Below are positions 631 through 47,400 of a DNA stretch of 64,000 nucleotides, piece after piece (positions within the stretch are counted from its first letter, which is position 1; each line of letters begins with the position of its first letter). The DNA lies in the NCBI GenBank assembly GCA_047967505.1, contig CM106538.1, one strand, 5' to 3'. The translations under genes were made by a program, and so were the position numbers. The notes beneath the pieces were generated by a model. The model saw nothing but the letters and a program-made list of their open reading frames with translations, did not search any database and was not told the origin of the DNA. Source of the DNA: Dipteris shenzhenensis. Lineage: Eukaryota.

Positions 631-685
631 ATATACAGATATTTATAGTAATGTAACAACTATGTACAGCAGCAAAAGTATGAGG

Positions 686-2506: not shown

Positions 2507-2508
<2 letters not shown>

Positions 2509-2547
<39 letters not shown>

Positions 2548-2769
2548 CACACACACACACTTTTTTTTGTGTGAAATTTTGATACTTCATATTACAATTT
2601 AGCTATCCCAAAAAACGAGGTATGCCAAATTACATCGAAAGAAAATCTCACTATGGAAAATGTAGGGTCACCAAAGACACACACACACACACTTTTTTTT
2701 AGTAAAATCCATTGTATTTATATGCTCATAAATTTACAATATGGGAGGTCTCCCACACACTAGCAAAGA

Positions 2770-2812
<43 letters not shown>
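2509..2812. repeat. Cluster of (CA)n microsatellites
   Basis: (CA)n runs at about 2509-2560, 2677-2692 and 2771-2812. Confidence 0.95.
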
Positions 2813-2816
<4 letters not shown>

Positions 2817-2918
2817 AGTTAATCTCTCCCTCTTTTTTGATTTGAAGGAAGGTGTTCTGTTTGGTTTTATCCTTTGTCCTGACTCATGTATTGACATTTA
2901 TGCCTTGTGAGTGTCAAG

Positions 2919-16040: not shown

Positions 16041-16049
16041 TATCTCTTC

Positions 16050-19000
16050 ACGCAGTTCCATCTCTCTTGTTTAGTGACACATCCTCCTTGTTTAGTGACA
16101 CATCCATTAGTGTGCATATATTATCCTCCTCTCCAATCTTTTGTTTTACCTCTCTCTCTCTCTCTCTCCCTCTGTCCCTCCCTCTCAGATCCGGAGGTGT
16201 GGCTGTCCTCTTCAAATCACATCTGAGGCCACTCCTCTTTATGATATGTAGGGAGGAGCATGCACAACACATGTGGATTCGAGTCCAGTTACCAGACACA
16301 CTGCCCACCTTCATTGGAGTATGTTACTTTTCCCTAAACACATCATGCTATGCGCGAGAGGTCACCACTAACGGGCACATCCCAGATGAGACTATTCATG
16401 ATGATATCACGAAGTTTTCCAGACATGGGGACACTCTCCTCCTTGGTGACTTCAATTATATAGCAGTCTTTGAAGATGGCCATCATCTGGCGGACTCACC
16501 TGTTTCCCACATGGAGGGGGGAGTAGTACGGTAGACTACCGGCTGGGTTCACTAGCACTGACCCCACGGATACATGATTTTATTGTGCTGCCTCCTCCAC
16601 TCAGAGATGACCACTCATATCTCACTTTCTATATATGGGTCACCACGTCAGCTATGAGGAGGGCCCCCCCACCACCCACTCATGTTTAGATCTATTTTGA
16701 CCATGCTCTTGACCCAGTGTATGTGAGCCACTTGGTTTCTGAGCTTCTAGTACTACTTGGCGATAGGATGGACCTCGCACATGCATCACACTCTTCTATC
16801 GATGATACAGGATGTTGCAGCCAGATCCTTTCCCATGACACGATCTGCACGTGTTCCAGATGGGGGAATGCCCCAAAATCCATGGTTTGATTATGAGCGC
16901 AGAGAGAAGAGAGCCCACCTTACATGTGAGATAGCACTAGGACATTTGAGTTCACCAGAGGTGCAACGGATCTCATGCTGACTGACATGGCATAGAAGTG
17001 GGCTTTCCTCATGTATAGGATGGATGAGGTGATCAGTTTCTTTCATGGAGGAGATCGAACTATGGGATGGGGACTCTTATCAGAAGGGAAGTCACCCATT
17101 CCCTTCATAGATCCCACAGTCTGGCACACATATGCTTGCTCTCTATATGATGTCCCAGGTCAGGCACCACTTGATATGTCCTCTATGCTTAGACCCACCA
17201 CATGTCATTTGTTTACTTTGTACAATGTACGAGTTGCCCTTCTCCGGCTTCATAACCAACGATCACTAGATCATAGGGATTATGCACTGAGAATTTTGCA
17301 CATGGGCAAGAGATCCCGACCCCGATATTAGCACAGTTGTTGAACTATGCCATATGCAATGGCTTCCCACTTACCTGGAGCACCACCACCATAGTACCGA
17401 TACACAAGGTAGGTGATCCTACCTTGTGTATCGGAACTACCGTACTCTTATGATTGGCCACACTTTGGCTAAGATATATGGGTCGGTACTAGAGAGGGAG
17501 ATCAACAGCCACACAGAGGGTTGCGAACAGCGGGCACTTGGTTAGGCAGGATTTCGGAGACAACACTCCACCTTGGATCACATTTTTATCCTCAGGGCTA
17601 TTATTGAGGAGGCGAAGTTGAGGCATCAAAAAGTCTACACTTGCTTCATAGATTTTTGTAAGGCATTTGACACTATCCCATGCTCTCGCCTGATCAGAAG
17701 GTTACAGGAGCTACAGCTCCCAGATATCATGATTTGGGGGGTCATGTGTCTATATGAGTCTGTCAGAGGGAGGATACATGCCCCAGGAGGCTTATCAAAC
17801 TGGATTGAGAGCACCATTAGAGTAAAGCAAGGCTACCCCTATCACCAACTCTCTTCGGGCTCTATATCGACGAGATCACTTGTTTTGTCGATCGACTAGG
17901 TGGAGAGGGTTTGCTTTGGTTGACCAGATGGTAGAGATATTGATGTATGCCTATGACACAGTCCTCATATCATCCTTAGTAGAGGGGCTGCAGAAACATC
18001 TAGAGGCTCTAGAGATGTTCTATAGGGAGAGAGACTTGACAGTTAACCTTGGGAAGACCAAGGTTATGATCTTCAACACCTTGCAGTGTCCTGTCACCAT
18101 AGTTTCACATACCGTGGCGAGCCTGTGGAGATAGTGTAGTCCTACACATATTTGGGGATAGTGTTCACTGGACCATGTTTCACGATGATCCATGCGGGTA
18201 TGGCATGGCTCACATGAGGAAGGGGTGCTCTAGCCCGTGACTAGAGAGGCGATGCTTCCAGGCACACTTCTAGGACCCCCGACAAAGGGCTGGCTCTTTG
18301 ACACATTGGTGAGACCGACTGTCATGTACGCAGCACGTTTTTGGGAGAGTGATATTTCAGCGCAACGGAGTGGAAGAGATTGAGAGACTACAGGTGACCA
18401 TGGGATCCACGATGATTTGGAGTAAACCCTAAGTCCCCCATCAGATTATACAGGTAGAGTTCACCATGACCCCTCTCCAGGTTGATTCCATCTTTCAAAC
18501 AGTGGCGTTTCTCCATTGAGTTTGGGCATTACCCAAGTGCAGACTACTGAGGTTAGCATTAGAGTCCCCCAGGCGAATAGCAGAGAGTAGTGTTGATACG
18601 GCATGGTACGCATGGATATCCACATGGTTTGGTAGTCAGGGCATTCAGATGGACAGACTTCCCCCCTTTCAGTACAATGTGGATGCACCACCTGAGATCA
18701 TCCCACGAGATGAGATTAACCGTATCATATGGTTGGACCTCTGAGGATTTCAAAGCACGGTCTTGTCATCAGACCTCAGTATCTTGAGGACATGCGAGTT
18801 TCACATGCACTGAGGATCGCCATTAGTCAGTTACGAGTCTCATCACATCAGCTGGCGGATTGAGGCAGGGAGAGCTGCAGGCATACCTAGAGAACAGAGG
18901 ACTTGCACACTATGCCAGATGGGGGAGATTGAGATGGAGGAGCATTTTCTATGTGTCTGCCCAGTCTACTATGAAATTCGAAGATGATATCATTGTCTCT

Positions 19001-22130: not shown

Positions 22131-22794
22131 GCAGGTTCTCCCTCACCTAATTTCTTCTCCTATCACCATAATGCAAAGGATATCTCCTCGTTGAGGGCTC
22201 TGAAACCGTATATTTCATCAGTGTCTACAACATCCCATTCTCTCTAGACTACGCTATGATGGATACATTATATTCCTAAACACAATATAGGCCATCCTTC
22301 AAGATTATTTCTCATAAAGGCAAGTATAGATAACATCTGACAAGAGGATGAGCACTAAAGCTAGGAAGTGCTTATTTTGTAGGTCTCATCTTTGCTGCAA
22401 GATAGGAGCAGCCTTTCAAAACAAACCAATCTCCTATTGTATTCTTTGTTTTCAATCCTCTTCTCTATGAATATTGGCCATGACGTCTTTTAAATAGTTC
22501 TAGAGCTCAATCTTAGCTCTTCAACAAAAAAAGAGCTCCCAAGTCCAAGTTATGGATCAAAAGTTATTGTAAAAATAGTGACTACTACTTTTTCAGGGAG
22601 GTGCGACTAGTTTTTATTGTCTACATGCTCTTTACACTAGCCTATTACCACTAGGTCCACAATGAACAATCACTTTATATCTTCATGCAAATAAAATTCT
22701 AGTCCTAGCATACAAACATGAACTAACATGTTACAATAGTATCAGTTCTTCCTAGTTCCTACCACTAGTAGTTCAAAATTGGGGTCTGCCTATC

Positions 22795-23435
22795 ATTGTC
22801 CCCTTCTCTCATCCCTCATCCTCCATCCCCCTTCTCCCCATCCCTACCATATCCATTGTCCCCATCCTTCCAACTCCCTTCTCCCCATTCCCCATCCTCC
22901 TTCTCCCATCCCTCCTGCCCTTTTCTCCTCATCCCTCTTCTCCTCAACCCCTTTTTCTGCATCCTTCTCATCCCCCATGCCCCTTCTCCCCATCACTCAT
23001 CCTCCATTTCTCTTCTCCCCACTCCCCTCCATCTCCATTCTCCCCACTCCCCTAGTCCGTTCTCCCCTTCCCCCTTCTCCTCATCCTTCTTCTCCGAACC
23101 CCCCTTCTCCCTATTCCCCATCCCCATTCCTCACATCCCCCTTCTCCCCATCCCCCATCCCCCACCCCCCCTCCTCATCCCTCATCCCTCGTCGCACATC
23201 CCCTTCTTCCATCCCCATCCCCATCCCAATTCTTCGCATCCCTCCTTCCCCTTCTTCCCATTCCCCTTCTCTTCATCCCTCCCATACTTGCTTCCCTCTT
23301 CTCAGCATCCCCCCATCCCCCTTCTCCTCATCCCTCCTCTCCATCCCATTTGAATTCCACATCTCTCCATCTCTCGTATCTCCCCATCTCCCTTCTCCTC
23401 ATCCATATTATCCTCATCCCCCTTCTCCCTAGGTC
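22795..23435. repeat. Polypyrimidine low-complexity tract (CCCCTTCTCC/CCCCAT motifs)
   Basis: About 640 bp almost devoid of G on the + strand. Confidence 0.95.
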
Positions 23436-23479
23436 CTCTTTTTCTCATTAGAACTGTGTCTTTGTTTTAGTTACATATT

Positions 23480-28391: not shown

Positions 28392-30110
28392 TCACGGAAG
28401 AACAGGCCCGCATGATAAGGCCATCAACAAAACAGCTGCTTCCTCCTCGTCCATCGCAAACACGCTTGTCAGCCTGCCCTGCTGTTGCAGCAACGCTAGC
28501 TTTGCAGCAGCTCCTTTCCGCCTCGAGCTCGCATTAGGCATGTTTAGAGGACTCCGTTTCCGGGGTGAAGGTGTCCCTGGTGAAGTCAGGCAGCTCTCAG
28601 TGTCTTCGACCTTGGGGATAAGGTTCCTCCTCACCACCATCAATGCTGGCCATTTACCTTTTCTGAGGCGTTGACGAGACCGACCGTTAACTATCTCCTC
28701 TTGATCTTCTGGTACCTTCCGCTTTGTAGGGCGGCTGGAAAATTTACCCGGTGTTGGAGTTCTGGGGGGAGAGACTTGGAGATCAGGATAACCATTAGCA
28801 GCTTGCGATCTTCTGGCTTTCTTGTACCGGATCCCGCACGCGTTGCAGAGAGACTGAAAAATGTAGACTTGCGTTAACATCACACGACTGCCAAATATCG
28901 TAAAGAGAAGCAACTTCGGGAAATAGCAAACGACATGCACATGCATAAGACGCAGACCTTGGGACCCTGAGGGCCACTCCTCCACAGAGGAGTCTTGGTT
29001 GTTCCACACAGCTTGCAAGATCTTAACGAATTACGACAAGTTGTCGATAGGGGGGCCTCGGCCGATGTGAGCTCTTCGCTTCTTTCGACAGGGGGCCTCC
29101 TCCACATAAGAACTTCGTTGTGCTCATCGAAGCGTCTGGGCTGCGACGAAGTGACACAAGTATCGCAACCGTTTCTTTCGCCAAGACTATCCTGTGATCC
29201 GGAAATGTTTGATTCAGCTGGTTTTGCGAGCTTGTAGCCACTCCCCTGCAGCCACAGAGAGCGCATAAATGAGTTTGATGGACAGTGGCTCTGTGAACTA
29301 TTACAATTGACAGAAATTAACAGGCATTACCAAAGGTGAAGTTTTTGGATACGGTTCTGACTTGACGCAAGACTCAGAGGCCATGGACGATCTGTCATCT
29401 TCCGTAGCCACGTGAACACAACCTGTGAACGATGCCCGACTTTTCTTAACGCTGCACGCCACAGCAGCATGAAGCTTATCCTTCTGGGATAAATCGAGCT
29501 CAGCCTCCGAATGGAAATTATCCGGGGAAGAAATCTCAGAACCATTAGCAGGCAAACCGGGCCTGTGATCAGATGGAGAGGGGCACGGAAACAATGACTC
29601 AGACAAGTCGCTGCCTTGTCTTCCGAGTTGTAGGTCATTAGGCCTGTTTTGGGCATCCATAGAATCTCTGTTAACAGAAGGCACCCCAGCTATTTCGCTA
29701 AACGCATCCCGTCGAAGATGATCAAGTGCTTCGGCAGAAGTGTTGACGCCAACGTTGCCGATTAACGGTCCTTCGGATCCGGCAACACCTGCGACGTCGT
29801 GACTATCTTGTAAAGTCCAGTGTGCACGCGATGGAGGTGATGTTTCTGACGGAGCGATCCTAAAATCGGCGCTTATGCTGAGTGATGCACTATTCGACCC
29901 CTTAACAGAGGCAGCTAACAGGGAGCTTCCTGAGGCGGATGAGAGGCTATAATTATCTTGCTTCTCCATGCGTGTTTGCACGAGGGCGAGGTTTTTGCAC
30001 AAACTCTGAGTATCCGCCCCGCTCAAGTGCAGTGGCGTCGACAACATGATCAACCTTTTATGGGAAAGATCAACGCCACTTACAGAGGGCGCAACTGTTA
30101 AAGCTCTCAT
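28392..30110 (-). CDS. LLM-domain B-class GATA zinc-finger transcription factor (GNC/GNL-related), about 509 aa
   Basis: Exons 30110-29331, 29245-28958 and 28853-28392, with phase-0 GT-AG introns. Zinc finger CKLCGTTKTPLWRSGPQGPK|SLCNAC (CX2CX18CX2C) followed by GIRYKK; C-terminal EEEAAVLLMALSCG is the LLM domain. The start codon is uncertain (alternatives near 30047 and 29969). Confidence 0.93.
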
Positions 30111-30701
30111 AGCCTGGGTAAGCGGCTAGAACAAGGAGCTCATCAGTGACACTTCTGCTGAGACTCGGGAATATCGGATGTAGCTCGCTCGCTCACTTTT
30201 GTCGAAGCTTCAGATGAGCTTCCTTAGATGTCATTGAATGGATAGGTCCAAATCAAGCAAGATGAGGCCAAAGAGCTAGAGGGCAGGAAAGGGAGGGTTA
30301 GAATCAGTCCCGGATGAAGCAGAGCTGACTGATGAGGGAGAGGAAAAGGGATGTGGGGAGGCTAAGAAAACGTTCGAGGTACCTACGCAGGAAGTGAAAT
30401 CAGACCTGCAAAGCTACAGGGAAAGAGAGGACACACTCGAAGCCCGAGAAGGGGTATAGAGCTACAGAAAACTGATTGGAGTGAGCCGCAATGGATAGAG
30501 AAATTGCGCTTGTATGGAAGGCAGAGATGAATAAGAAGGCTAGAGGAGAGACCAAAACCTATTGGAGATCGGGATTTAAGCGGCTGAGAGTGGTTTAGGG
30601 TTTTGGAAAACGGCCTTGGCGGAAGAAGATAAGCCTCTGGTGGATACGGCCGCGCAGCCGAAATTGTGGAGCTCGTGCACCCTCCATTATTATCGCATAC
30701 A

Positions 30702-30970
30702 ATTGCAATTTATCTATTTTTGCATGGCCGCCTACGTCCCCTTGGTTATTATTTCCTACTCGTACAATCCTTGATTATTTCCTTCAATCTATCTCACAAC
30801 AATTTGCACCATAATCCTTGATTATTTCCTGCAGTCAAGGGGGTCATCGGGATCATGGAACTCATATCTCATACATCATGATGCAAGGGGGACGTCATAT
30901 ATGATGCATTATGATGGGAAATAATCAAGGGGCACCCCCTTCAGCCATGCAAAGATAATATAGTTGCAAT
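30702..30970. mobile_element. MITE-like inverted-repeat element upstream of the GATA gene
   Basis: attgcaatttatctatttttgcatggc pairs imperfectly with gccatgcaaagataatatagttgcaat; ccttgattatttcc pairs with ggaaataatcaagg. Confidence 0.6.
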
Positions 30971-32529
30971 CTTTTCATTTTTCATGGCCGCCTAAGTCCT
31001 CGATTATTTGCTAATGTGTCACTCTGCCCAAATTGAATTGATCTATCTTCCAGGCTAACTTTACAAAAGAGGCTATGTTTCGACATGTGAAGATTTCGTT
31101 ACGTGCTCAAAAGTTCGAAGTGTGCCCGGTGGCCTTTAGGGCCTTCGATGTTGCAGTGTGGTCTCAACTAAAAATGTTGTCTTTTTCTCTTTTGATTTTT
31201 TTCCCCTTAGTATAATCACCCTTTCTGTTGTGCAACCAAAAAAAACTTATTGTCGCTCTACTTCGGTTCTTCTTGGTGCACTTAGATTTGAGCAAAAAAT
31301 AAGCTTGAACACAAGCCCCCACATGAACTATAAATCAACAACAAGTATATGCCATAATGCACAGCTTAATGAATGTCCCTATTATCCCTGTTGCTCCTAG
31401 TGCAATGGGATTCAAGCAAAAACAAGCGTACAAGCAAGCAGTATGAGCCCAGAGTCTAGATATGAGCAGTAAACAACAATGACCCATCAACAAGTAAACA
31501 ACACTCCATGAATAACGGCAACCAAATGTAAAAAGAATACCAAACACCAATTATAAGGACTAAGGATCTCAAAAGATCCATGTGCTGAGTAAATAGAAAC
31601 AACTAGCTGCCCACAGCAACCAGTTCCATGCAGTCATGTTTATTGCTAAACTAATTGAAGAAACTAGGGGACTTGTTCTATAAAGCACACTTCCTCTTTT
31701 CAATAAATGGTCTCTTTATTTTCATAATGTCAAAGTCTAAGTATCTAGTTTAAGTGTCTCCTTGCATATCCAATACACTTGAAGAATCCTACATATTAGA
31801 ACATGCCAATCAATGTATGATCTATATACGTATTAGGAACAATACAATTGCAACAAAGTGAGCTTGAAGTCAAATACTAGAAATGAGAGTGCATGCTATA
31901 CTAGAGTACATCAATGCACAAATATAAAGATGATCCAAAATACATGTATGTTATATTTGTGTGGCGGGAAAGGTGGCATCCTTCCTCCCCAAAAATTATA
32001 AGTCTAAGGAATATCCCCTCCTTGGACATGTAGAACCTTGGATATGCTCTCTTGCAACATAATCTCGTATGGAATGAGCAATGTAGAAGTAAAGTTTACC
32101 TTTGATCTAGGATGTAGAGTTTGCAACATAAGGGTCAACATAAGGGTTATCCTAGAATATAAGTATAGATACAAATATAAAAGGTGTGCGCATATGTGTG
32201 TGTGTTTGTATGTCACAAAAAATGAATTTGAATACAATAATAACATCTCATAGATCCTAACATTGTTGACCTTGCAGAGCAATAGCAGCTCAGGTGTTGG
32301 GCATTTGCCTACTTGATCTGCCTGCCCATGTTCGATTCCCTTAAGAAGGCCCTTGTTAGGTAAAAGCAATTGTCGGTATAACCATGGATAAAAGCATTGA
32401 TTTGGACCCAAAAAAAGCATGAATAAAATCATCAAAACAATTTTTGGAAACATTATGATGTTTATATGGATGGTATGGAAGCATTTTTAACACTTATATC
32501 AATGGCTTTTTTAGTGGTCTTTTTCCTAA

Positions 32530-33550
32530 AGAGGTTAGGTCCCTAGTGCAATGTTGTCCATTATTTATTCTCTCTTCTACTTTGGGCAAACTACATCCTC
32601 TCCAACCCATTGTTGGGGAGGAGAGAATAAACAAAGTGCCACTGTTTATTCTCTCTTCTACATTGCACAAACCACATCCTCTCCAACCCACCTCCCTCCA
32701 TACATCACACCCCCCCCTCCAATATCTTGTCTTCCTTCTACTTTGAAGACAAGAGTTGGGCGTGCAAACACTGAAGCTTGGATGAATCCACTCCAAATAT
32801 CATAAGAGGTAAGACTTCTTTCATTGTAGTGTGTTCATGAGCGAAGTGAGCTCCCCACAACCGAATGATTGTATGAAGAAGCCGAGCACGAGTTAGAGGT
32901 GGGTTCATGAGGTACACAAGAACGTACACAAGAACATACCATGCAAGAGTACGACAACAAGAGGTGATATGGTCTGAGCAATGTAGTGTGTTCATGAGCG
33001 AAGTGAGCTCCCCACAACCGAATGATTGTACGACACCACCAAAAACTATTGCTCAGACCATATCAATGGAAGCAAAAGAGAAAATCAAAGTGTGGGTGGT
33101 CGTGGTGTCACCATGTACGGATGTAGATAGGAGATCAACGCATGCAAAACTTGTAAAAACTCAATGGTAGCAAGTCAAGACAGTAAGGGGGAGGGCGACT
33201 TCAACATCTGAGATAGCATCGGTAAAGGAGTAGTCAGGTGCACTTGAGAAATTAAGGGTGCACTGACAAGATGAGCCGATGAAGCAAGGCAACGCTTAAG
33301 GGTGCACTAGTAGAGAATCAAGTTGGGCCAACCGATAGCCGTCAAGGGGGGTACACTGATGAGAGAAGCCATTAGAAAGCTAAGACAATCCATGAAGGTA
33401 GCATAGGGGGAGTAGGGAGTAAAAGGAGAGGACCTAAGAGGAATATCCATCATGAACCAACTCACGGGGAGGTAGGAGGAAATTGAGAGAAGAGGGAATT
33501 GAGGAGCATCATGAAAGTTCGGATCGGTCAGCATCAAGTGCGATCAGTCA
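32530..33550 (-). mobile_element. 3' end of an LTR retrotransposon (PPT plus LTR start) with internal duplications
   Basis: Minus strand ggaggggggg then TGTGATG at about 32710; a ~48-bp repeat at about 32826 and 32982; a ~45-bp repeat at about 32562 and 32646. Confidence 0.5.
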
Positions 33551-34028
33551 GCTAAGGACCAGGAGAGTTCCATACCTCCCAAACTAAGACACCTCTAAAA
33601 TAAGTAAAATTTCATCACTTTTCCACCCAACTCCACATGGTCATCATTATGACTATTGATCACAATATTAATCCCCACGTTTTATCTAAAAGATCATTAA
33701 ATTGTTATCCACCATATTCTAGAGCATTGTAAATCAAAACTTATCAATATTATAAGTATCCAAAGAGCAATTATAAATCCAAAACCCATAAATGGAAAAT
33801 TATAAGAGGAGCAATTATTATACAAGAGCTAATATAATTACATATGACAATTACAAAGAGAGAAAATAAATAAATATAGAAGGGAAGTTTAGTACAATAG
33901 CAAATACAATACCAATGAGATAAGGTCGCGAGGTAGAATAGAAGTAAAATAAGGAAAAATTAGAGTAATTCCTACATGGGAGCGAAAATTTATTGTAGCA
34001 CCTAAATGTGAGTGTGTCAAAGAAATTG

Positions 34029-34034
<6 letters not shown>

Positions 34035-34086
<52 letters not shown>

Positions 34087-34286
34087 ACACACACACACAC
34101 ACACACGTGTGCATGCACAAAGCCTAGGCCAAAAATCTATCGTCTAAAAAGTGTCCAAAAGAATGAGATTTGCAGGGTTGGGAATTTCCCAACCTTCCAA
34201 ATCATGTTCTTTTGTACACTCTTTAGTGTTTCTTATTTTGAAGCAGAGGTGCATCCTTAAGAGCATGAGGAGGGGAAGGGAAGGAG

Positions 34287-34348
<62 letters not shown>
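34035..34348. repeat. (GA)n(CA)n and (GA)n microsatellites flanking an ~80-bp palindrome
   Basis: Runs at about 34035-34106 and 34290-34348; imperfect palindrome at 34144-34226. Confidence 0.9.
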
Positions 34349-34352
<4 letters not shown>

Positions 34353-34401
34353 TAGGACTTATTTTTTATGTTCTTCAATGTGCAATTTAGCATCAATTCC
34401 A

Positions 34402-34920
34402 ATGGCAAGGAAAAAGGCTACTACCAGGAAAAAGGACAAGGATCTACCCATAGCAAAATGGCAGCATCAAAAGGACGAGTCACTCATCCAAGAAAAGGAA
34501 AGCCAATGCATCTTCTCAAACAAGAGAAAAAAAAGATTTACACAAAAGCTCAGTGTACTAAGGGAGATAAGAAGGGTTCAGAAAGCCATGAAAATGTGTA
34601 TTCCCAAGGCACCTTTTTTAAGGCTAGCTAAGCCGGTTTGTGACGATATGAGATTTGGGAGCCTTGGATATCGATAGCAAAGAACGATAATATGGGCATT
34701 GCAAGTGAGTGCTAAAGACTTTTTCAAAGAGTTTTTTTAGGATACATTTCTTCTTGCATCCCACTACCATAGGGTGACAATCATGGAAAAGGATATGACA
34801 ACTTTAAAGATGGTGAGATGGAGATATAACAAACTCCTCAAGGCTATACATATGACAAACATCAAGATGAGTGACATTTTGCTGATACCATCTACACAAA
34901 CGCCAAAACAAAATGAGTAA
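34402..34920 (+). pseudogene. Divergent histone H3 / CENH3-like pseudogene with C-terminal extension
   Basis: MARKKATTRK...VLREIRRVQKAMKMCIPKAPFLRLAKPVCDDMRFGSLGYR*QRTIIWALQVSAKDFFKEFF*DTFLLASHYHRVTIMEKDM, a complete H3 fold in one frame with two in-frame TAG stops (34675, 34738). Confidence 0.85.
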
Positions 34921-35199
34921 AGATAGAGGGAGTGACTAATGGAAAAGAAATAAGGGCAAAAATAGCCTTCGAGGAATCCCAAAAGGAAAAATTGAAGGAC
35001 ACCGACATCCTCATGGGATCCTCGCTCACGTACATGGACAAATGGCAAGAAACTTACAGGGTTAGTCTTTATTGGCATAGTCTCTCAAGCTTTGGTTATG
35101 AGCTACTGTGTCGCCACTTGAGATGTTAGCTCAGAGCCCGTCACTAGCCCATCATTTTCTCCTACTGTTGTGTATCGCTCTGATCACTCTACCTTTGCT

Positions 35200-36100
35200 T
35201 AGCTTATGGAGACACACTAGCCCTTGAAATACAGTCGAACAATCATGTTATGCGCTAAACACGAGGCTACTACCATCGAGCTATATAGTGCCAAAGTATG
35301 ATAATGGAAATAAGTGGACTTCATGAAAGCGTGCATTATGGGAGGGAGAACATCTGAAAAATACCACATACAAACACCTCATATCTTCCACCAATATAGA
35401 TATTGCAAAACTAGAATTACAAGTTTTGGAGTGTCTACATACACTAGGACCTACTGTAGATATATGTTTTGAGGATGGGGACTCATTAAGAGAGTTTAAC
35501 CTAATAGACAATTGTATGAATGCAAGCAAAAATTGAGCAGGAGAAGTTACCAACATAATCATCCTTGTAGGACTCTAGTAAGTTTTTATTGACAATCAAT
35601 TATTTTGAATACTATTCTAGACTACTCTGTTGATTTGCAGCTTACTCAAAAAAAGGTTACATGGACAATAACAAGATTTTGTACATATCATGGACCTAGT
35701 TATCTCCAAGTTAAGGGATCCCAAGGAGCCAATGGACTAGATTGCAAAGTGGTTCACAGCTTGCAAATTCCAATCTGTGTGCCTTATTGTCATCCCTTAC
35801 CATTCAAAGTAAGTGATTATTCAGGTACATTGCATAAGGAGCTAAATTGTTCTTTTGAATCCACAAGTTTTAATCTTTATAAGAATTGTCAAATCTAGAT
35901 GACATTGGAGTTTAGCTACAATATGTTTGCCAACAAAAGCATGTTTCTGCTTCAATTTAGTTACTATTCAGGTAATGTGATGATGTGAAACTACATGTGA
36001 GCAAAGGGACTGATGACTCTGAGTAAGGACTATTTAGGAATTTTTTGGCATGGCTTCGATTGGCTACTTTGGAGTTCTCTCTACTATGGATGATCTAATC
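35200..36100 (+). pseudogene. Ulp1/C48-like cysteine protease fragment (spliced, degenerate)
   Basis: CLIVIPYHSK, then a GT-AG intron at 35809-35898, then *HWSLATICLPTKACFCFN, fitting IP.....HW.L.......D of Ulp1 proteases. The catalytic Cys motif was not seen. Confidence 0.5.
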
Positions 36101-37499
36101 TATTCTAAACTAGATCTAGACCAATAATCGAGCAATGTAAAAGTAGCAAATAATTCCTTTTCTTTGTTCGTTTTAGGTGATGGGTCAGATGCGTCGATGT
36201 GGAGGTTGATGTGCATGCAAGAAGTGGATTTGTCATCAAGGCTCAAAAGTGTGTGATACTTGCATAAAATGTGCACATGATGTGATGAGCGTGTAGAGCA
36301 CAAAAAATCAAGTATTTTTCCTTTTTGGAGTGCCCTCAAGTTCTTCCCAGATCAAGAGATACGACTTGATCTAGGTGGAGGGGCAAAAAGAGTGCTAGTG
36401 ATGATGTGGCACTCAAGGTCACATGCACGGGTGTGCCTGCCAAGGGATGTGCCAATGGAGTAGTGATGGCGTGGTAGCTAGGTGTAGTGCCAATGTGCTA
36501 GTGGAGAGGTAACTGTGCCTAGCAGGGGGTCAGTGCCATGTGGTAGATGCTGAGTTGGCAGCTCAAGTGACAAGCTGATTGGACTTGTTAATGTGGCAGT
36601 GATGTTAGCTGATGATGTGGCCTGGGTGACTATGCAAGCTGACATGGCAGGTGGACACCACGTGGCAGATAAGTATGCCATGTGTCCTTGATGATGTGTT
36701 AGATAGGGTTTCCCTTGATGGAGCCATGTGTCATTATTAGGATTATCCCACGTGTCGAGCTTCGATGGAGATAATAATTGACAGAATCTAAAATATTCCA
36801 TACAAAATCTTTTTCAGATTCTAATGACATAAATAATTCCGTTGCTACGTGTAGAACCCCATGGAGGCATCGATAGTTAGATGCCACCTAAGTTGGCCTC
36901 GTTTGGATGCTAGAGCTCGTATGTTGTGGCATTGGTCATGTAGGATAGGTCAGTTGACTAGTGCTATGGTTGCAAGATGCTACGGCTTGATGCAAAGGCT
37001 CGTTGAGGCACCATTGTGAACTCATCTAGTTGCCATAGAGGTCATTGTGAGGCTTGTTGGCATTGTAGAATTTTGGCTGTCGGGAGCCTGAGTCATCGCT
37101 TGGAGTGGTTGTAGAAAGTTGATGTAGTGACAGGAGTCTGTTGTTTGGATCGGCTATAGTGTTGAGCTCTATGTTGGCATGGGTGATGGCTATGTTGCAG
37201 CTCCGTTGATGATGGCAGCATCAGTGAGTCTTGGGAGCAAGTCTTGTAGTTGTCGAGTTTATAGGAATGACGGTTGCTAAAGCTGTGAGGTCACTGCCTT
37301 GTGAAGTAGCTCGAGTGCTAGAGCCGATAGGAGCTATTGTAGCATTTCCCACAACTAGAGGTCCAGTTGGAGGAGTCGTTGGTGGGCTTGTGGTGTTGCA
37401 AGGAGCTTGTTGGAGTGAGTTGTGAACCTCTATGTCTTTGCTAGCACTGTGCTTGTGAGCCTTAGTCGTTAGCTACCTTGTTGAGGCTTAATCATCATA

Positions 37500-39500
37500 G
37501 GTTCAAATGGACTACACAGTTTTAAGTTTGATACGAGAGACATAGGAGATATCCACTATGTCCTTGGCATGGAAAAATGAAAATGGCATTATGTTGACAT
37601 GGGGAAAATGCTTCCAATTTGTTTTGAAGTAAATTTAGATGTATGATTGCAAAGCCTTGCTAACTCCCATGTAATCCAACAATAAATTGTCCACTTACTA
37701 TTGTTACAAATCCTCTTCACTATTGATATTTCACTGGTAGGTTGATCTACTTGAAAATAACATAGTTAGACACTTCATATACAACTGGTTTCCTCAATCA
37801 ACTCATGAAGGACCAAATAATTCTTCTCTTGATGTAGCAAGAATTTTTGTGAATTAGCCAAATGATAATTATAGAGTCATTTTTGAGGGAGATGATTCGA
37901 GACAACAAGCCAGAGAAAATTAGCTAAATGAAAAAGTCTAAAAGAAGGAGTCTTATTCAAAATGCTAGGTTCAATGCCAAACTTACATGCATGTCACCAG
38001 AACATCAACTAATGCCACTTTTTGCAATACAAAACATGAGATATGGTCTCGTTAAGTTTGGGAGTTTGATGCAATTGAGAAATTAGAACATAGTTATCAA
38101 CATTCCAAAACTTTAATTCCTTGGGAAATTTTGTGCAGCATCTGCTTTGGTAAAAATTCAAGAGTCAAGGTTAGGAGAAGCACCTATTGAGCAAGAGGTA
38201 TTCTTGACTAGAATAATAAATATGTTTGGGGTTATGCAAAAACCCATACCATGAATGGTTTAGTGTACTACACTTTCATAGATAATGTTGGGTCTATTTT
38301 CTTAAGGAGAAATTTGAAGTCATTTACCATCTTTCAAGAATCTAAGTCATGGTAGAAAACCAGACAAACAAAAATATCAAATCTCTTAGATAATATAGAT
38401 GAGGTGAATGTATGTCTTCCACACTCATGAACTTTTTACAAGGGTAATGGAATTTGTAGACAATTCACATGTGTAGATAATCCTCGATAGAGTGCAGTAG
38501 CCAAAAGGAAGAACATGACTTTAGCCAATAGTGTTGGAAGCAATGCTCACTAAGAAGCATTTTCCAAATCATTTTTGGGAAGAAGCAATCCACATTGCCA
38601 ACTACTTTTTGAATCGACTTATGACAAATTACATTCAAGGTATGAAACCTTATGAGGCATTCAATGGATACAAGCCATGCATTGGGAATCTCCACATATT
38701 CAAATACATAGCCTATGTTCACATAAAGTTCAATGGAAAGTTATGGAAATTCATCATGGTTGTTAGAGATGAGAGAAAAGCATACAAGTGTAATGATTCC
38801 ACTAATCAAAAGATCAATAGAGATGTAGTTTTGATGAAGAATTAAATACACAAGTTATTGTCACACTAATGACTTAAACACATTCAAAGAAGGCTGATGA
38901 AGATGAGCAAGCATTGCCTGAAGATTCCTCAAAAGAGAAACAACTCAAATGGTGTACAAGTCAATAGAGACTACCACCTAGGTGGACATATAATTAGAAT
39001 GGCAAAGAGACTCAATTTTAAAGCACAAATTATGCCCTTATTATTACCCATTGCTACAAAAGAGCCATTGTGCTTTGAAGATGCAATTGACAAGCTAGAA
39101 TGACAGATTTCTAGGAATGAAGAAATGCCTTTTTGTAGAAAAGCAATGCTTTGGATTTATATGACTTGCCACCAAGAAAGAATGCAATTGCTATGAATAA
39201 ACAACTCTTGGGATTTATATGACTTGACACTACGATAGAAGTCAATTGAAAATGAGTGGTGACTTGGTGACATACTCAACATTGTGATGACAGCAAAGAT
39301 GATTTTGTAGATATATTTTACCAAGCCACTTGGGAAAGATATTTTGGAGAAGTTCTTTTTTAACTCAAAGGAAGGATATTCCCATGAAGGTTTTATGATG
39401 AATATAATGTTCAAGTCCTTCATTCTCCATAATCATGATCTTGAGGGAAGGCCTACTTCATAATGTTGATATTGGGGGAAGGTGGTGAGGATTCTTAACA
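37500..39500 (+). mobile_element. Degraded, internally deleted Ty1/copia element
   Basis: Integrase traces NIKSLR, GNGICRQFT, MLTKKHFPNHFWEEAIHIANYFLNR, KPYEA, IAYVH, RDVV; EPLCFEDA; then DIFTKPLG (RNase H end) and a PPT-like gggggaagg at about 39474. Confidence 0.8.
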
Positions 39501-42500
39501 TCATGTTTATATTCCACATACCACTAACACAAAGATTGTTAAACAGACATGATAAGGATTGAGAACCCTAACACTAACCCTAACCCTAAAGGGTTTGTAT
39601 TTATTCATTATTTTTCACTATAGTGTACAACAATCATTTGTGGTGTGCTCTCTCTCCTCATCTCCACTCTTCTCCTCTCCCTCTTCATATTTGTTGATTT
39701 TGAGGGTACATTCACTTAGAAACCTTGATCAACCATCAGACACCATTGATTAATTCATCCTTAGAAAGATACCCATGAATTATTCATGATCTTGCATGAC
39801 TTATCATTCCATATCCATGTCTTAGCTTCCTACAATCCAAAGAAGAAGCACATCAAGGGAAAGAACTACCACAATATCTATATGCTCATCTAGAAATCAA
39901 GGTAAGTTCTGCCTGTAAATAACAAGAAAAGTTGCAAGGGAAAAAAAAGGAAATACCTTCATCATTTATTAAAGATTTCATCTTGGTCTACCTACCTCTA
40001 AAATAAAGGAAAATGATTTCAACATAGAGGAATTTCAAGGGAATTCATTCTTCAACAAGATCATAACTTACCTAACATGGAGTTAAAATGCAAGAAAACA
40101 CACAACAAAGCCCTTATATCTTGATGAAGACACCATCAAGGCGTTATAATCAAATTTAACATTTCACAAGAATTGATTCCTCAACAAGATCAGAATTCAC
40201 CTTGCAATGCTCAACATAGAGTTGAAATGCAAGGAAACACACATCAAAACCCGTATATCTCAATCAAGTCACAATTGAAGAGTTATACTCACATTTACTG
40301 TGCAACCCGGCAAAGGCTCCCATATAATGCTGCATTGTTTGCTATACCAGCCCTGTAGTACCATTATCCCTTTTCCAAGCGTCGGCTCACCTCTAAGAGT
40401 AAACCATGTAGTAGCCCACATGGTTGTCTTGTGGAAGATTCCATCCACCTAGATGTGCCCATGTGGCATCCATATTTGATGCTCACAAAGTAGAATCCCA
40501 TGCCCCCCAATCCTATCTCTATACAATGTACTTGCCAAACATCCATGAAAATCGGTGCATGAGTTGCTTATGAGTTCTATGGTCAAAATTGTAAGATAAG
40601 GGTATAGCTCACATAGTAGGAGAGCAGTGGATATACTGTTTGTATCTTGTATCTTCTCACTTGCTAGATAAGAAAGATGCAAGACTAGTTGTTTCTCTGT
40701 GGACATAGCCAACATTGGGTCAACCATGTATATCAGTCTCTTTGTCTCTTCCATTATGTGTGCTTCATGTATTTTGTATTTTACACATTCCAATTCTCGC
40801 ATTGTTGCTCCATTATCATGTTGCTCCTAACAGATTTGACTAATTAATAGGCGATATAAGATGTGCAAACCCTACATGTAGAAGCATTGCAATAATCATG
40901 TGGAGGTTTAACATATTCCAAAGCTATATTGAAGTCACTTTGGCTAGTGGATAGGAGGAACCATAACATTTTATAGTAACAGCAGGTACCTAGTCATCTA
41001 AGGAAAATTTGTGACAAGTCATTTCATCAACCCATGAAAGAGATTTCTTTAAGATATAATCTTGTTGACAGATCATATCTAACCTTTTGGATCTTACAAG
41101 AGTGGAATTTTGGCCTTTCATATGTGAGAGCTGCATTCTTAGATCAATATGCTCCAGAAAGAGACCCCAATGGAATCTAGACGGAGCTATATAAGTATAA
41201 ACACGAGCTGAACCAAGATGTTGATTTAATACCTGATTCATTTCTTTGAAGTGTGGAACCCCTAGAGTGCAGCTTTACATTCAGAGATCCCACTCGAAAT
41301 GATTAAGAAGGAGATATATCTATTGCAAGCACATCATCTTAGAAAGTGGAAGTGAAGAACCCTCTTTGCTTTGATGAGAGGCAGTACGGTATGCATGAGA
41401 GAATGAGAGAAGGAATGGAAGATGAAGAGATTGGGACAATTGCGATTGCAGGAAAGTCCAAAGAATCCACTATTTGATTGGGAAGTAGCTTCATGGATGG
41501 ATATTTATAGGCTTTGGAAGCACAGTACAAGTGGATTGCCTACATGTATATCAGATGGTGATGATATGGGAAAAGTGACCAAGTAGGTTATTAGTGTAGA
41601 ACAAGTGCAAAATTTTGAAGCCCAAGAGTGGCATGAAAAGGGAATAGATATTGATATGTATGATCAAGAAGAGGATGAAGCACAGGAGATTGAAAATGCA
41701 TGTGAATCATATGTTGGGCCTTTGTTTGATACCGATAAAGATGTGCATATGACCTTCGATATGAGACTTTGTTATTAGAGCCTATTCATGATGGTGCAAA
41801 TACATGCAATGATCCATGGGATGTGGAAGAGCCTATGCTTGAGGATGCAATGATCCAAGAACAACTAGAGATAGGAAGCAATGCTTGCATGGATTCAGAG
41901 TTATGGTTTGATAACAATAATAGTAGTCTTCAAAGTGGAGAGATTTGTTGGGTTAGACGAATTAGATGCTATATTTCGGGTTTAGTGAGGGAACTAATGG
42001 GACATGCTTGATCCAATGACTATTTGTCTTGTAGCTTGATGCACTTGGGAGATGTAGTTGATGTTTGCCATAATGTTGGGGACTATGAAGAGCCTCTGTT
42101 TGGGCCCACATGTGATGCAAGGATGAGATTTGGTATATGCATATGTTTTAGAGGAATTTTCTTTTCGTACATCGAATACAAATTATTTCATGGATAAGTG
42201 GGCTTTGGGACCTATTTGGCAAGAAGATCTTATGGCTAAAAGTTTTCTTTCTCATGAAATAGAGGAGGAGATGCAGGTACTATCTGTCAAAGTTGTAGCT
42301 TGGGATCTTTTGAAGGGGCCTTTGCATGAGGAGGTGATCAACCAAGTACATGTAGAAGAGTTTCTGGATGCACATATCATAGAGAGGCAAGTAGTGTTGC
42401 AAGGTTATGTGATGCAACCTTGGACGATGCTTTCTAGTTTCTACATCTATGAAATAGAATTGTGGATGGATCAACCACCAAAGGAGAAATTCTGGGTGTT

Positions 42501-43604: not shown

Positions 43605-44430
43605 TATGGGGAGAAGGGGGATAGTGGATAAGGGATGGGGAGAAGGAGGCATTTGTTTAAAAGGGCCCAAGGTATAATTAGGAGAAGGGGGATGGGGGAG
43701 AAGGGAAATTTTAAAAGGGGATGGGGGAGAAAGGGAAATTTAGAACTTGGGCATGATGGTAAATTATAAGGGGATGGGAAAGAGAAGAAACCTAAGGTTA
43801 AAAGGCATGAGAAAGAGGGGAGAAAGGGGAGAGGAAGGGTGGAGAAGAGAGGGGAGAAAGAAAGAGGGGAGAAAGGAGGAGGGAAAGAAGGAGATCAAGG
43901 TAGATGGGGATATTTTAAAAGGGGGAAATGGGGAGAATGGGAAGAGAAGGAGAATGAGAAAATTTTGAATGGGAAAGGCATGAGAAAGAGGGGAGAACAA
44001 GGGGCGAAAGGAATGGAGAAAGGAGGGGAGAAAGGAGGAGGAAAGGAGGAAAACAGGGGGGAAAGAAGGAGATTAAAGAATAGAAGGAAGAATGGGAAGA
44101 GAAGGAGAATGAGAAAATTTTGAATGGGAAAGGCATGAGAAAGAGGGGAGAATGGGAAGAGAAGGAGAATGAGAAAATTTTGAATGGGAAAGGCATGAGA
44201 AAGAGGGGAGAATGGGAAGAAAAGGAGAATGAGAAAATTTTGAATGGGAAAGGCATGAGAAAGAGGGGAGAACAAGGGGCGAAAGGAATGGAGAAAGGAG
44301 GGGAGAAAGGAGGAGGAAAGGAGGAAAACGGGGGGGAAAGAAGGAGATTAAAGAATAGAGTGTGTGTAGGATGGAGAGGATCAACAAGATGTGTAAGGAG
44401 ACGATGGAATTTCTTTGCCCAAATAGGGAG
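43605..44430. repeat. Polypurine tract containing a 60-bp tandem repeat
   Basis: gaatgggaagagaaggagaatgagaaaattttgaatgggaaaggcatgagaaagaggggag at about 43936, 44090, 44150 and 44210. Confidence 0.95.
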
Positions 44431-47400
44431 ATAGGGGATGAATAAACAAAGGCCCTATGAGCTGTAGGAGTTAAGTTACATTTTTTGGAAATTACCATCA
44501 AAATAACCATTGATATAAGCATCAAAAAATACTCGAGAGCATCAGTATAATGGTCAATTTGTTTCCTAGAAAGTGTTTTGATAGTTATAATGACTCTTTC
44601 TCTGGGGCCACCTTGATGGTTATTTAGACAATTATGTCAATGATTATAGTTTGTTAAAATATTTATATGTTAATAAGAGGGAAATTCACTCCAAGTGTTT
44701 CAATGCAAAGACCTCATGGGGGGGCTATGTAAAAACCCTACATATAGCACGTGTGATCCAGGGATATTAAAAAAAAACCCTACCTACAGAATTTAATAAC
44801 CTATATACACTCCTTTTGTAAATCTAAGATGATTAAAATATCCCTTATGTATGAAAATTTCCACTTTTTGAATTTAAAAACCGATTATGTATGTATATTT
44901 TTTGTCACTCCATAAAAATATAAAACCCTTTCCATTGATCGCTTGCGCTATCTTACATATTTCTTAGTGACCTCCTGAGGCAAAGACCCATCAACTCTCC
45001 TTCATGCAAAGTTTCATGTAAGCTAAACCTTGTTAATCCATCCTCAAAACTTGCCCTATGAAAATTTCATTATTTAATATATTATATGATATCACCATTA
45101 ACCAGCTTTGAAAGGCTAAACAATTTCCAATGTGGTGGGGCACATACCACTAGTTGTGTGTCCAAAATTAGCTTGTGAGATAGAAGCCTAGTCAACTCTA
45201 TGTGCTTTCCCTATGGAAAACTGTCTGGAGATCTTAGTAAAAGTCACATGGAACCTAGGGTATAGTTTGTATGGTTCCACACAGTGTTTGATAATATTGG
45301 GTCCTTGCATATATTTTTATTGTAGGAAATAAACTTTCCCTACACTAGCTCATTTTGTTAGCCCACTATATATCCATAACTTATAGGGAAATTAGAGGTC
45401 TTTGGGGTGCAAACCGCATCTCATGTTAATGATTATAAACAATAAAAATAAAGTGATTATGAAGATTCATGTCACTAAGCACATGAATATTGTAAATGGC
45501 TTGCCCTACCATGCTCTAACCTAAAAATTGGCACATCAAGTCAAAATGACCCTTGAGAAGGGGGACTATACTTGAAAGCATCAATATAATAGTTGGACTT
45601 CTCTGGCTTTATCGATGCTTGGATCAACAGTGTCATTATTGGACGTCTATGGTTTTATCAATTCTTGTATCAACAGTGTCATTTTTTAAATGGTTTACTA
45701 ACTATAAATTTGTATCGATGGTTATTTTAATGGTTTATGGTTTTTATCCAGTTATTTTGATGGTTAGGGATTTCTAGTTCTAGGTTTTTTGGATGAAAAC
45801 TATATTATATATTGTAAATAAATGCTAATAAGCATATTTGAGACTATGGGTATTTCAAACAACAAGTACATGTGCAAAACAAAAAGGAGGTATGACTTTG
45901 TGGTTTCATACTTGCCTAAATCAGCAGCCTTGTGTGACATTTGAAATGAGCATCAATGTGGGGATGTTCTATTTCAAAGTGGTGATGAGGAACGAAACCC
46001 CATGAATCACAAGTGAACCAAAACTATCAAATTTTGCTAAAAGAAGCATGACCAAAGAGGAGAAGAAACATGAAGGGATTACAACATTGTGAGTATGTAC
46101 CTATATAGAGCAATCATGAGCAAGATAATGCAATGCACAACATGATAGATGCATATTTTGATCTAGATCCAAGGAATGAACATTATGAAGAGGATGTGGA
46201 AAGTAGCTAAAGCTACACCCCATGAGTCCTTAGGGGACTTGATTAGAAGATGAGACAAATACAATGTTACACATAGTATCTAATGCATCTTGTATCACAA
46301 TGACTTTTCTCATATTGAAACTACAAGCTAGCTGTGCATGGTTTGACATAAGTGTCACCTCTCTTTTTTGGTAAAAGACTTTGTTGTATTGTAATAAGAG
46401 ATTTGTTTTAATAGATGCCCAAGTTGTCATGTGCATTTTTGTGTAGATTTCTTTGTACATTACTTCCAAAATGTAACACTATCAAGCAACTAAATCAAAC
46501 AACAAAAGGAAAAAACTCATCAAAGATCTTTAGGTATAAGCCATGTTAGAGAATTTCTAAATTTTTAGACATTATGCATGTTGTGAGTAGGAGGTGGGGT
46601 ATGAAAATTGAATAGTAAGTAGTGTAGTGACACTATCCACATTCCTAACGATGGATTTTGGAGTGAATGTAGGCAAATTATGATGGCGATGGCGAGTGGT
46701 TTTTTTGTTCCCTATTCACACACGCGTGGCCATTTATGAGGGGCACATACACCCATTGCCTACACTAACAAGCGGCAAGGGACTCTCCAAGGGAGGCATC
46801 AAGCTCAAGTGGACGAATGCCTAACTGCATGAGCTATCGCTATTGCGATGGGGGGTGCTTGTTAGCTGCAATAGTTTGATGTGTTCAATGATTAAAATTT
46901 GAGGCCTTTGTAAGAATTGCAAGTTTGTTTTAATAGCTTGAGTCATGCAAAGGCTCTTCTTGATGATTTACCACATCCTCCCACCTTATCTGAGTGAAGG
47001 TTTAGTATGTCACTGCAATGTTAAAAAACTAGAAATTCCTATTAATTAGTTGTGGGGAAAAGAAGAGGGTGAAAAGCTAAAGGATAAAGCCATGACTAAA
47101 CTAAGGGATAAAGGGGAGAGGGGAGAAGTTTCAATTAAAGGATAAGGGAGGGTATCAGGCATTGAATGGGGAGCTTGGGGGGGAGAGACCACTTATAAAG
47201 GGGGCATTAAAGAAGAAGGGACGTGCTAAAGGGAGAGGGGGAGGAGACCGTTTAGAGAGCATTCCCATGAGCGACCTATTAACACCCCTCTTCTACATAG
47301 GCTCAAAAGATTAACCTATGCATAAAATAAAATAACCCATGGACAAACATAGGTTAAGGGGCCAAAACAAATAGGAGGAATAAAGTAGAGTTGGGCAAGT

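Follow-up and report, generated by a model that had tools for sequence, protein, structure and literature searches.

A decayed pseudogene of a probable histone H3-variant/C48-protease fusion family in repeat-rich DNA of Dipteris shenzhenensis

Fusion of a core histone to an enzyme is rare, and macroH2A is the textbook case. Ulp1-type proteases of the Peptidase_C48 family have, in the available text of three papers, been described in plant mobile elements: in open reading frame (ORF) 2 of CACTA elements (PMC8978399), recurrently in non-transposase proteins of active terminal inverted repeat (TIR) elements (PMC12973397), and in KIU, the VANC-Ulp1 protein of the anti-silencing VANDAL Mutator-like elements (MULEs) (PMC13317346). 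The subject of this analysis is a segment of a 64,000-nucleotide stretch of contig CM106538.1 of Dipteris shenzhenensis (assembly GCA_047967505.1), hereafter the window, in which an H3-like histone sequence is followed on the same strand by the remains of a protease domain. With a probability of about 0.6, this locus is a decayed pseudogene of a multi-copy gene family whose members fuse an H3 variant to a C48 protease, and for whose product a role as a chromatin-tethered isopeptidase is proposed.

In the family product a single polypeptide joins four parts: the tail and fold of an H3 variant, an extension of about 45 aa following helix alpha3, a charged disordered linker, and a clan-CE C48 domain. 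Its members were collected by a HMMER search of 1.84 billion representative proteins with the window protein (the translation of positions 34402-34920), which yielded 4396 proteins with E ≤ 0.001, of which 134 have E ≤ 1e-10; a word-index protein search with the same query gave no match. The best single-domain matches (P0003-P0009, P0012, P0017, P0019, P0024, P0027 and others; E 1e-20 to 1e-28) extend over residues 1-171 of the query and take in 30-odd residues beyond alpha3 that are absent from ordinary H3. Family alignments have in common an H3-like start MARTKQTAR, a complete fold and the extension R(W/Y/F)RYDKLL.P....D.KM.DIL.IPP.RK...V.H..TR, and all 23 relatives scanned match the Pfam Histone family PF00125.

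The exon-1 ORFs of many relatives run from the extension through a linker rich in E, K, R and Q into a block such as LSLDRGDIDILKTPGTELNDTIVYAMIR and stop right after R or W, as expected from read-through of a phase-2 donor, in which AG/GTAAGT becomes AGG TAA. The C48 domain itself is reached in three models from the fern Adiantum nelumboides. P0035 (403 aa) and P0166 (503 aa) contain both Histone and Peptidase_C48 domains, the latter with E = 1.3e-5 (25.6 bits) and E = 5.2e-6 (26.9 bits), respectively, against a cut-off of 20.7 bits; P0179 (601 aa), from another subfamily, aligns through HWSL...YYANSG...QDDNYSCGW. The N-terminally truncated model P0165 matches C48 alone (E = 4.3e-7, 30.4 bits against the same cut-off) and in sequence is nearest to SENP8/NEDP1 (1.1e-4), followed by SENP2, SENP1 and Ulp1. 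In the Pfam scan, P0179 and P0168 did not reach the PF02902 gathering score.

An AlphaFold2 (AF2) model of P0179 indicates that the protease part of this relative probably adopts a clan-CE fold. Foldseek matched the model to 63 chains at E ≤ 1e-3, among them NEDP1 2bkq (E = 1.5e-8, TM score 0.74 on the target) and Ulp1 2hkp (2.4e-8). VIA-align gave Z 19.1 to 2bkq_C of NEDP1/SENP8 (198/207 residues, root-mean-square deviation 3.0, model residues 241-463) and Z 18.6 to Ulp1 1euv_A (model residues 223-462), and its matches as a whole span model residues 221-464. The linker is predicted to be disordered, with the predicted local distance difference test (pLDDT) score below 50 at residues 135-166 and low up to about residue 215. 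Since the protease fold of P0179 starts at about residue 221 and exon 1 ends at about residue 289, histone fold, linker and first protease helices all derive from a single exon. With the start of the fold lying inside exon 1, the fusion is not an annotation artefact. The original prediction that histone and Ulp1 form one module, possibly one protein, is thereby supported in its stronger form.

Genes of the same architecture occur in metagenomes. Of 18 loci found by scanning metagenome contigs with a sub-alignment, three (L001-L003, on contigs of 1.1-2.4 kb) bear the family extension (E 1e-18 to 1e-20). L001 (2430 nt) comprises five GT-AG introns of 67-96 nt and a stop-free spliced ORF of at least 590 aa, in which HWSL, INSL and SCGW occur and which the hidden Markov model (HMM) of the family tail matches with E = 5.9e-39. 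The first three exons of L002 are arranged as in L001. In the ESM Atlas, generic C48 clusters only were found.

Giant viruses encode histones and Ulp1/adenain-like proteases, and the poxvirus I7L and African swine fever virus pS273R proteases are among the lower fold matches of the P0179 model, so that a relic left by the integration of a large DNA virus or virophage-like element has to be considered. This origin is very improbable, given that the top fold matches are the cellular NEDP1, Ulp1 and SENP proteases, that the introns of L001 are spliceosomal, that the N-terminal tail is that of a eukaryotic H3, and that relatives were found in 0/64 pattern matches in a viral contig collection.

The window copy has the following parts, given with their coordinates and strand.

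34402..34920 (+), H3-like segment of exon 1: MARKK tail, histone fold and start of the family-specific post-alpha3 extension; ends with TAA 34918-34920.
34675..34677 (+), premature TAG at the H3 F84 position, where 37/37 family rows have Trp.
34738..34740 (+), premature TAG in helix alpha2, within the FF-x-D motif.
34917..35062 (+), continuation of exon 1 in another frame: end of the extension (VKIEGVT..EIRAK) and start of the charged linker; tblastn 1e-5 to P0004 and 3.7e-4 to P0006.
35063..35383 (+), presumed linker, decayed and unalignable, with no family match; contains a second frame change and possibly an insertion.
35384..35577 (+), tail of exon 1: linker end and first protease-domain helices (LECLHTLGPTVDICF...EVTNIIILVGL); TGA at 35534-35536; ends TA/GTAAGT in phase 2; tblastn 0.001 to P0032.
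35578..35640 (+), intron 1: GTAAGT...CAG, phase 2; position and phase as in intron 1 of L001.
35641..35808 (+), exon 2 of the protease domain (...AKWFTACKFQSVCLIVIPYHS) with the IPYH motif; premature TAA 35669-35671 and TAG 35738-35740.
35809..35898 (+), intron 2: GTAAGT...TAG, phase 2; position as in intron 2 of L001.
35899..35971 (+), exon 3: catalytic His motif HWSL and CFCFNL, with Asn at the Ulp1 Asp site; premature TGA 35900-35902; tblastn 0.02.
35972..36037 (+), putative intron 3: GTAATG...TAG; by comparison with L001, the relatives' exon of about 30 aa appears to be absent here.
36038..36127 (+), putative last recognisable exon (EFFGMASIGYFGVL...), the weakest one: SIGY in place of the relatives' SCGW, with loss of the Cys; ends with TAA 36125-36127.

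The translation of 34402-34920 on the plus strand comprises 172 aa with two in-frame TAGs, and the frame ends at the TAA because of a frame change. The histone part is intronless. It scores 58.2 bits with PF00125 (cut-off 26.4; E = 1.2e-15), and its best sequence matches among solved structures are H3/CENP-A chimeras (6.8e-16) and S. pombe Cnp1 (1.2e-14), narrowly ahead of canonical H3 (about 1e-13), in agreement with the complete H3 fold that had been claimed. In tblastn all 24 of the 24 family proteins match this segment, with E from 1e-16 to 4e-35. The residues that contact DNA and the other histones in H3 are mostly kept, with R72 replaced by K, and the D106-T107 pair is present, as the original prediction had stated for T107. 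The long C-terminal continuation proves to be genuine and homologous: residues 140-171 of the window protein align to the conserved extension RWRYDKLL.P...D.KMRDILLIPP of the relatives, and beyond the frame change at about 34917 the extension resumes as VKIEGVTNGKEIRAK (tblastn E = 1e-5 to P0004).

Three supposed hallmarks of the centromeric variant CENH3 had been read from this segment. The TAG at the F84 position was thought to derive from TGG, and this is the likely source because the aligned family residue is Trp in 37/37 rows. The PFLR motif is indeed present, but its position 68 is Q, R, H, N, I, V or T in the family, and it is therefore non-diagnostic. Loop 1 is longer by three residues in the window copy, as noted, but this is a copy-specific insertion: an elongated loop is otherwise found only in P0044 (+8) and in P0006 and P0008 (+1), and most relatives have the canonical H3 length.

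An Ulp1-like IPYH/HWSL core had been placed about 1 kb downstream on the same strand, and its presence is upheld by several lines of evidence. Family tblastn matches follow in order on the same strand at 34917-35003 (E = 1e-5), 35384-35482 (E = 1e-3) and 35903-35962 (E = 0.02), all against a 2.3 kb database, the last being matched by P0165, P0168 and P0035. Two family HMMs built with the window excluded have as their best of 6378 tiles 35342-35641 (+) and 35762-36061 (+), each with E of about 1 and weak alone. On whole frames of 21,000 residues hmmsearch gave negative scores, and the tiles and a spliced reading were used instead. The spliced conceptual tail of 174 residues scores 34.5 bits against the family tail HMM, a value reached by 0/300 shuffles (maximum 4.2), and matches the A2 profile at E = 4.2e-8; its exon borders were picked with the family known, which favours these scores somewhat. 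The best match of L001 exon 2 across the entire window is 35672-35809 (tblastn E = 0.001), and introns 1 and 2 interrupt the same codons in the window copy and in L001 (...VGL-Y and ...ASM-R for intron 1, IPYHS-K and IPYHQ-D for intron 2). The last exon was aligned by eye to P0166, P0179 and L001.

The third-ranked region among the HMM tiles, an SCGW-like DAHTCGSRVV at 58596-58625 on the minus strand (E 0.16-0.3), has no Pfam match and is probably a chance similarity.

A raw three-frame scan of 34900-36400 detected neither C48 nor any other Pfam family. The Peptidase_C48 profile, proposed earlier as a check, is negative for the raw frames of the window and positive for the relatives P0035, P0166 and P0165. 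Taken on its own the Ulp1 part of the window is thus weak, as would be expected if a plain H3 or CENH3 pseudogene had come to lie beside an unrelated transposon fragment bearing Ulp1. Such chance neighbourhood has very little probability, however, since intact relatives show the identical order, strand and introns with a single ORF bridging both parts, and since the extension and linker of the window copy match interdomain sequence specific to the family. The contiguous exon-1 ORFs also argue against an assembly or annotation artefact in the fusions of the relatives.

The window copy is dead, as had been concluded from its stops. It has six premature stops (at 34675, 34738, 35534, 35669, 35738 and 35900), its frame changes at least twice (once near 34917 and once in the interval 35062-35384), an exon of about 30 aa is missing before 36038, and Ile stands in place of the relatives' catalytic Cys. 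The retention of introns shows that the copy was made by DNA-level duplication or transposition, not by retroposition; decay followed.

The relation of the family to known H3 variants was analysed with a tree of 85 histone folds, including canonical H3 and three Prunus CENH3 rows, the only plant CENH3 cluster that the tree covered. All 38 of the 38 family rows, the window copy among them, form one clade with an SH-like approximate likelihood ratio test (SH-aLRT) value of 98. In the free tree this clade stands apart from both Prunus CENH3 and canonical H3, in accordance with the earlier view that the window sequence is neither the host CENH3 nor the host H3. With Prunus CENH3 the family shares a median identity of 40.6%, and with canonical H3 one of 41.5%. 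Approximately unbiased (AU) tests gave p 0.98 for grouping the family with CENH3 and p 0.997 for grouping it with H3, the constrained searches having beaten a poorly optimised quick free tree; neither grouping is rejected by these tests. At 23 positions 80% or more of the family rows have the canonical H3 residue. Among these positions are R69, R72, R83, H113, R116, T118 and D123, which contact DNA, H4 or the second H3. Consensus states common to the family and plant CENH3 and different from H3 are F84W (37/37 rows), V89L and A98D.

Another H3 fusion family, unrelated to the window, is represented by P0254, P0264-P0269, P0274-P0277 and P0280 (370-425 aa), all encoded on ENA contigs. In this P0254-type set, which includes one cluster of 60 sequences, a near-canonical C-terminal H3 fold follows a long unrelated N-terminal region starting with MACTKQTARK.

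The protease domains of the family keep most of the Ulp1 catalytic signature. The His of HWSL and the Gln and Cys of Q.D..SCGW are present in P0166, P0165, P0168, P0179 and L001. The position aligned with the catalytic Asp is occupied by Asn in all family sequences readable there (P0166, P0035, P0165, P0168, P0179, L001 and L002): the equivalent of the Ulp1 motif (Y/V)DS is (A/I/V)NS in the family, as in YLANS, YYANS, LINSL and FVNSL, and FNL in the window. This assignment follows our own reading of the alignments; the phmmer alignment to SENP8 is one residue off and places Ser opposite the Asp. Judged from sequence, the canonical His-Asp-Cys triad with its oxyanion Gln appears to be replaced by a triad that would be His-Asn-Cys. 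A papain-like His-Asn arrangement could still work. As for the substrate, the deSUMOylase activity originally suggested, with its specificity for SUMO (small ubiquitin-like modifier), is too narrow an assignment: NEDP1/SENP8 and the SUMO proteases tie in fold score, and SUMO and NEDD8 are for this reason indistinguishable as substrates.

The family is multi-copy, as had been expected. In Adiantum nelumboides, to which all named relatives belong as hypothetical proteins, at least 20 gene models on 20 contigs were found among those listed, and they fall into at least four deep subclades. Over the region matched, P0165, P0166 and P0167 share 96, 93 and 81% identity, respectively, with P0035. Many copies are truncated or have been joined by the annotator to retroelement domains. 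P0038, P0167 and P0169 have an upstream exon block in common, and at least one duplicated unit therefore reaches beyond the gene itself.

Whether these copies were spread by a mobile or selfish element or arose as a host gene family is a matter of roughly even odds. The second possibility takes the form of a lineage-specific host family, in which a fern H3 variant with a tethered protease, acting for example in gamete or spore chromatin, expanded by segmental or tandem duplication with no mobile element involved. We regard it as a tentative alternative. It accords with the conserved multi-exon structure with canonical introns common to deeply diverged subfamilies, with the strong conservation of the nucleosome-contact residues, and with the occurrence of several deep subclades within one genome, as is seen in old gene families. 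Speaking against it, though not decisively, are the scatter of 20 or more loci over a single genome, some of them 93-96% identical and many truncated or lying among retroelement fragments, the neutral decay of the window copy, and the status of Ulp1 as a typical accessory domain of plant DNA transposons in the accessible portions of the literature (PMC8978399, PMC12973397, PMC13317346).

Several observations weigh against the explanation of the window as a relic of a fusion family of chromatin-tethered isopeptidases, in particular where a mobile carrier is assumed. Given the Asn at the catalytic Asp position, the protease domain could be a pseudo-enzyme or have altered chemistry. The AF2 model of P0179, built from a 30-row alignment, is only of middling confidence (mean pLDDT 66.5, predicted TM score 0.44). 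The Adiantum nelumboides entries are mostly automatic gene models, of which P0160, P0169 and P0170 are chimeric with retroelement domains. The window has 210 ORFs of 70 aa or longer, of which 97 were screened with Pfam after 113 overlapping or low-complexity ones had been set aside; no DNA transposase was matched in them, nor in the six frames of 36001-40502, and the mobile-element matches of the ORF screen are limited to long interspersed nuclear element (LINE) fragments (Exo_endo_phos, RVT_1) and a copia SH3_retrovirus fragment. No plausible inverted repeats bracket the gene in 30000-42000, where only microsatellite-driven or short chance pairs occur, a result that decay could also produce by hiding former termini. 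A target-site duplication around the window copy was likewise not found. The carriage by a transposon put forward in the original prediction is accordingly not substantiated at this locus, and the lack of a transposase and of terminal repeats in the regions searched speaks for the host-family alternative.

The retroelement domains of P0160, P0169 and P0170 were considered as traces of a carrier and rejected; they belong to two different retroelement types and are read as neighbouring insertions.

A separate observation concerns the metagenome contig L011 (5287 nt; positions 1-4289). It contains a two-exon H3-variant gene (3-200 and 240-425) that ends in KRLRGI and lacks the family extension. 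About 0.9 kb downstream on the same strand, a 996-aa ORF matches Transposase_mut (4.2e-5), MULE (2e-3) and, at its C terminus, Peptidase_C48 (4.4e-9). This single case could reflect adjacency by chance; alternatively, a MULE could here carry an H3 variant beside a Mutator-family transposase that bears Ulp1.

The architecture suggests how an intact family protein might act. The conservation of R69, R72, R83, H113, R116, T118 and D123 suggests that the conserved histone fold would pair with H4 and bring the protein into nucleosomes. The extension and the disordered linker would then let the protease reach adjacent chromatin proteins or histone tails, and the tethered isopeptidase would strip a ubiquitin-like modifier, SUMO or NEDD8, from neighbouring chromatin proteins. 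More speculatively, the family may be carried by, or act like, a selfish element whose protein counters SUMO-dependent silencing of its own locus. This idea is raised because copies of the family are scattered through one fern genome, some of them near-identical and many truncated, because the window copy decays neutrally, and because Ulp1 is recurrent in plant MULE and CACTA elements. Its most explicit version, a fern selfish element with its own H3 variant and SUMO/NEDD8-type isopeptidase that is assembled preferentially on its own chromatin and removes the ubiquitin-like marks recruiting heterochromatin machinery, is doubtful.

The surroundings of the pseudogene are repeat-rich eukaryotic DNA with a GC content of about 40% throughout the window. 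LINE-type fragments lie at 1-2053 on the minus strand and 16007-18131 on the plus strand; they comprise an Exo_endo_phos endonuclease (4.9e-11) with a DUF4283/zf-CCHC ORF, and a second copy with Exo_endo_phos and RVT_1. A decayed Ty1/copia-like fragment (37500-39100, plus strand; SH3_retrovirus at 38525-38842, E = 4.7e-6) is located 1.4 kb downstream of the H3-like pseudogene. Long (GA)n and (CA)n microsatellites at 34036-34110 and 34287-34350 immediately precede the H3-like ATG at 34402. About 4 kb upstream of the pseudogene, at 28395-30125 on the minus strand, a GATA zinc-finger gene extends across adjacent ORFs (GATA 8.7e-8 and 1.4e-4) and probably represents an intact gene of the host. Exons of another host-like gene at 7966-10142 on the plus strand encode an enolase C-terminal-like MR_MLE_C domain (3.5e-4) followed by an Abhydrolase_1 alpha/beta hydrolase (1.1e-14), and presumably resemble the MenC and MenH parts of a plant PHYLLO-type gene. 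Low-complexity repeats rich in Pro, Ser and Leu, with reiterated units such as FSHSPSLPILPS, run through long open frames at 22740-23450 (plus strand) and 43770-44640 (minus strand), which are probably tandem-repeat DNA and not genes.

A multi-copy plant gene fusing H3 to Ulp1 is apparently undescribed. A full-text literature search found no description of an H3-variant/Ulp1-protease fusion; its scope was the article texts and not their supplements, and the domain tables of one partly available source could list histone-bearing transposon proteins (PMC12973397). The window copy is itself a dead relic, whose value is that of a pointer to the family. Should the intact protein be incorporated into nucleosomes, a de-conjugating enzyme would in this case be naturally tethered to chromatin by the histone itself. 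If the family is transposon-borne, it would represent a new counter-silencing device parallel to the VANC-Ulp1 protein of VANDAL elements, and were the selfish-element proposal true, an anti-silencing weapon would reside inside the nucleosome itself. The family could also help to explain how chromatin is handled in the very large, repeat-rich genomes of ferns.

Among described systems, the Arabidopsis protein KIU/Kaonashi of VANDAL elements, which are MULEs without TIRs, is similar in that a multi-copy plant gene carries a C-terminal C48/Ulp1 domain on a chromatin-directed module; according to the part of the source available, the partner there is the VANC anti-silencing factor, whereas here it is a complete H3-variant fold (PMC13317346). 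ORF2 of plant CACTA elements likewise includes Peptidase_C48, as far as the source text covers it (PMC8978399), with a transposase-associated ORF in the place that the histone takes here. Relative to both KIU and CACTA, the window copy has no MULE or CACTA transposase or termini found nearby, the family has Asn at the catalytic Asp, and its named sources are fern gene models only.

The likeness to CENH3/CENP-A consists in the Trp at F84 (37/37 rows), the Asp at A98 and the Leu at V89, all as in Prunus CENH3, and in the CENP-A chimeras and Cnp1 as best structure-sequence matches of the window copy. Unlike CENH3, the family has a MARTKQTAR start, a mostly canonical loop 1 and a long C-terminal extension with a protease, and is multi-copy; it is equally far from Prunus CENH3 and from H3, and in the free tree it is separate from plant CENH3, a grouping with which the AU test does not reject (p 0.98).

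In Dothideomycetes, H3-derived sequence captured by hAT elements is also present in many copies, most of them inactivated; in the text available, these are transduplicated canonical H3 with no fused enzyme, whereas the family described here joins a diverged H3 variant to a protease (PMC6710886). NEDP1/SENP8 and Ulp1/SENP1-2 resemble the family in fold (Z 19.1 and 18.6), and the relatives keep HWSL and Q.D..SCGW; the family differs from these proteases in being fused to a histone and in the Asn at the Asp position, and the window copy also in the loss of the Cys. A parallel in design is macroH2A, in which, according to the portion of the source at hand, a histone fold and a basic or charged linker are followed by a globular domain at the C terminus through which the nucleosome gains an activity (PMC11368025). 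There, however, the histone is H2A, the macro domain binds ADP-ribose, and the gene is a conserved single-copy animal host gene, whereas the family represented by the window copy is multi-copy and joins an H3 variant to a cysteine protease fold.

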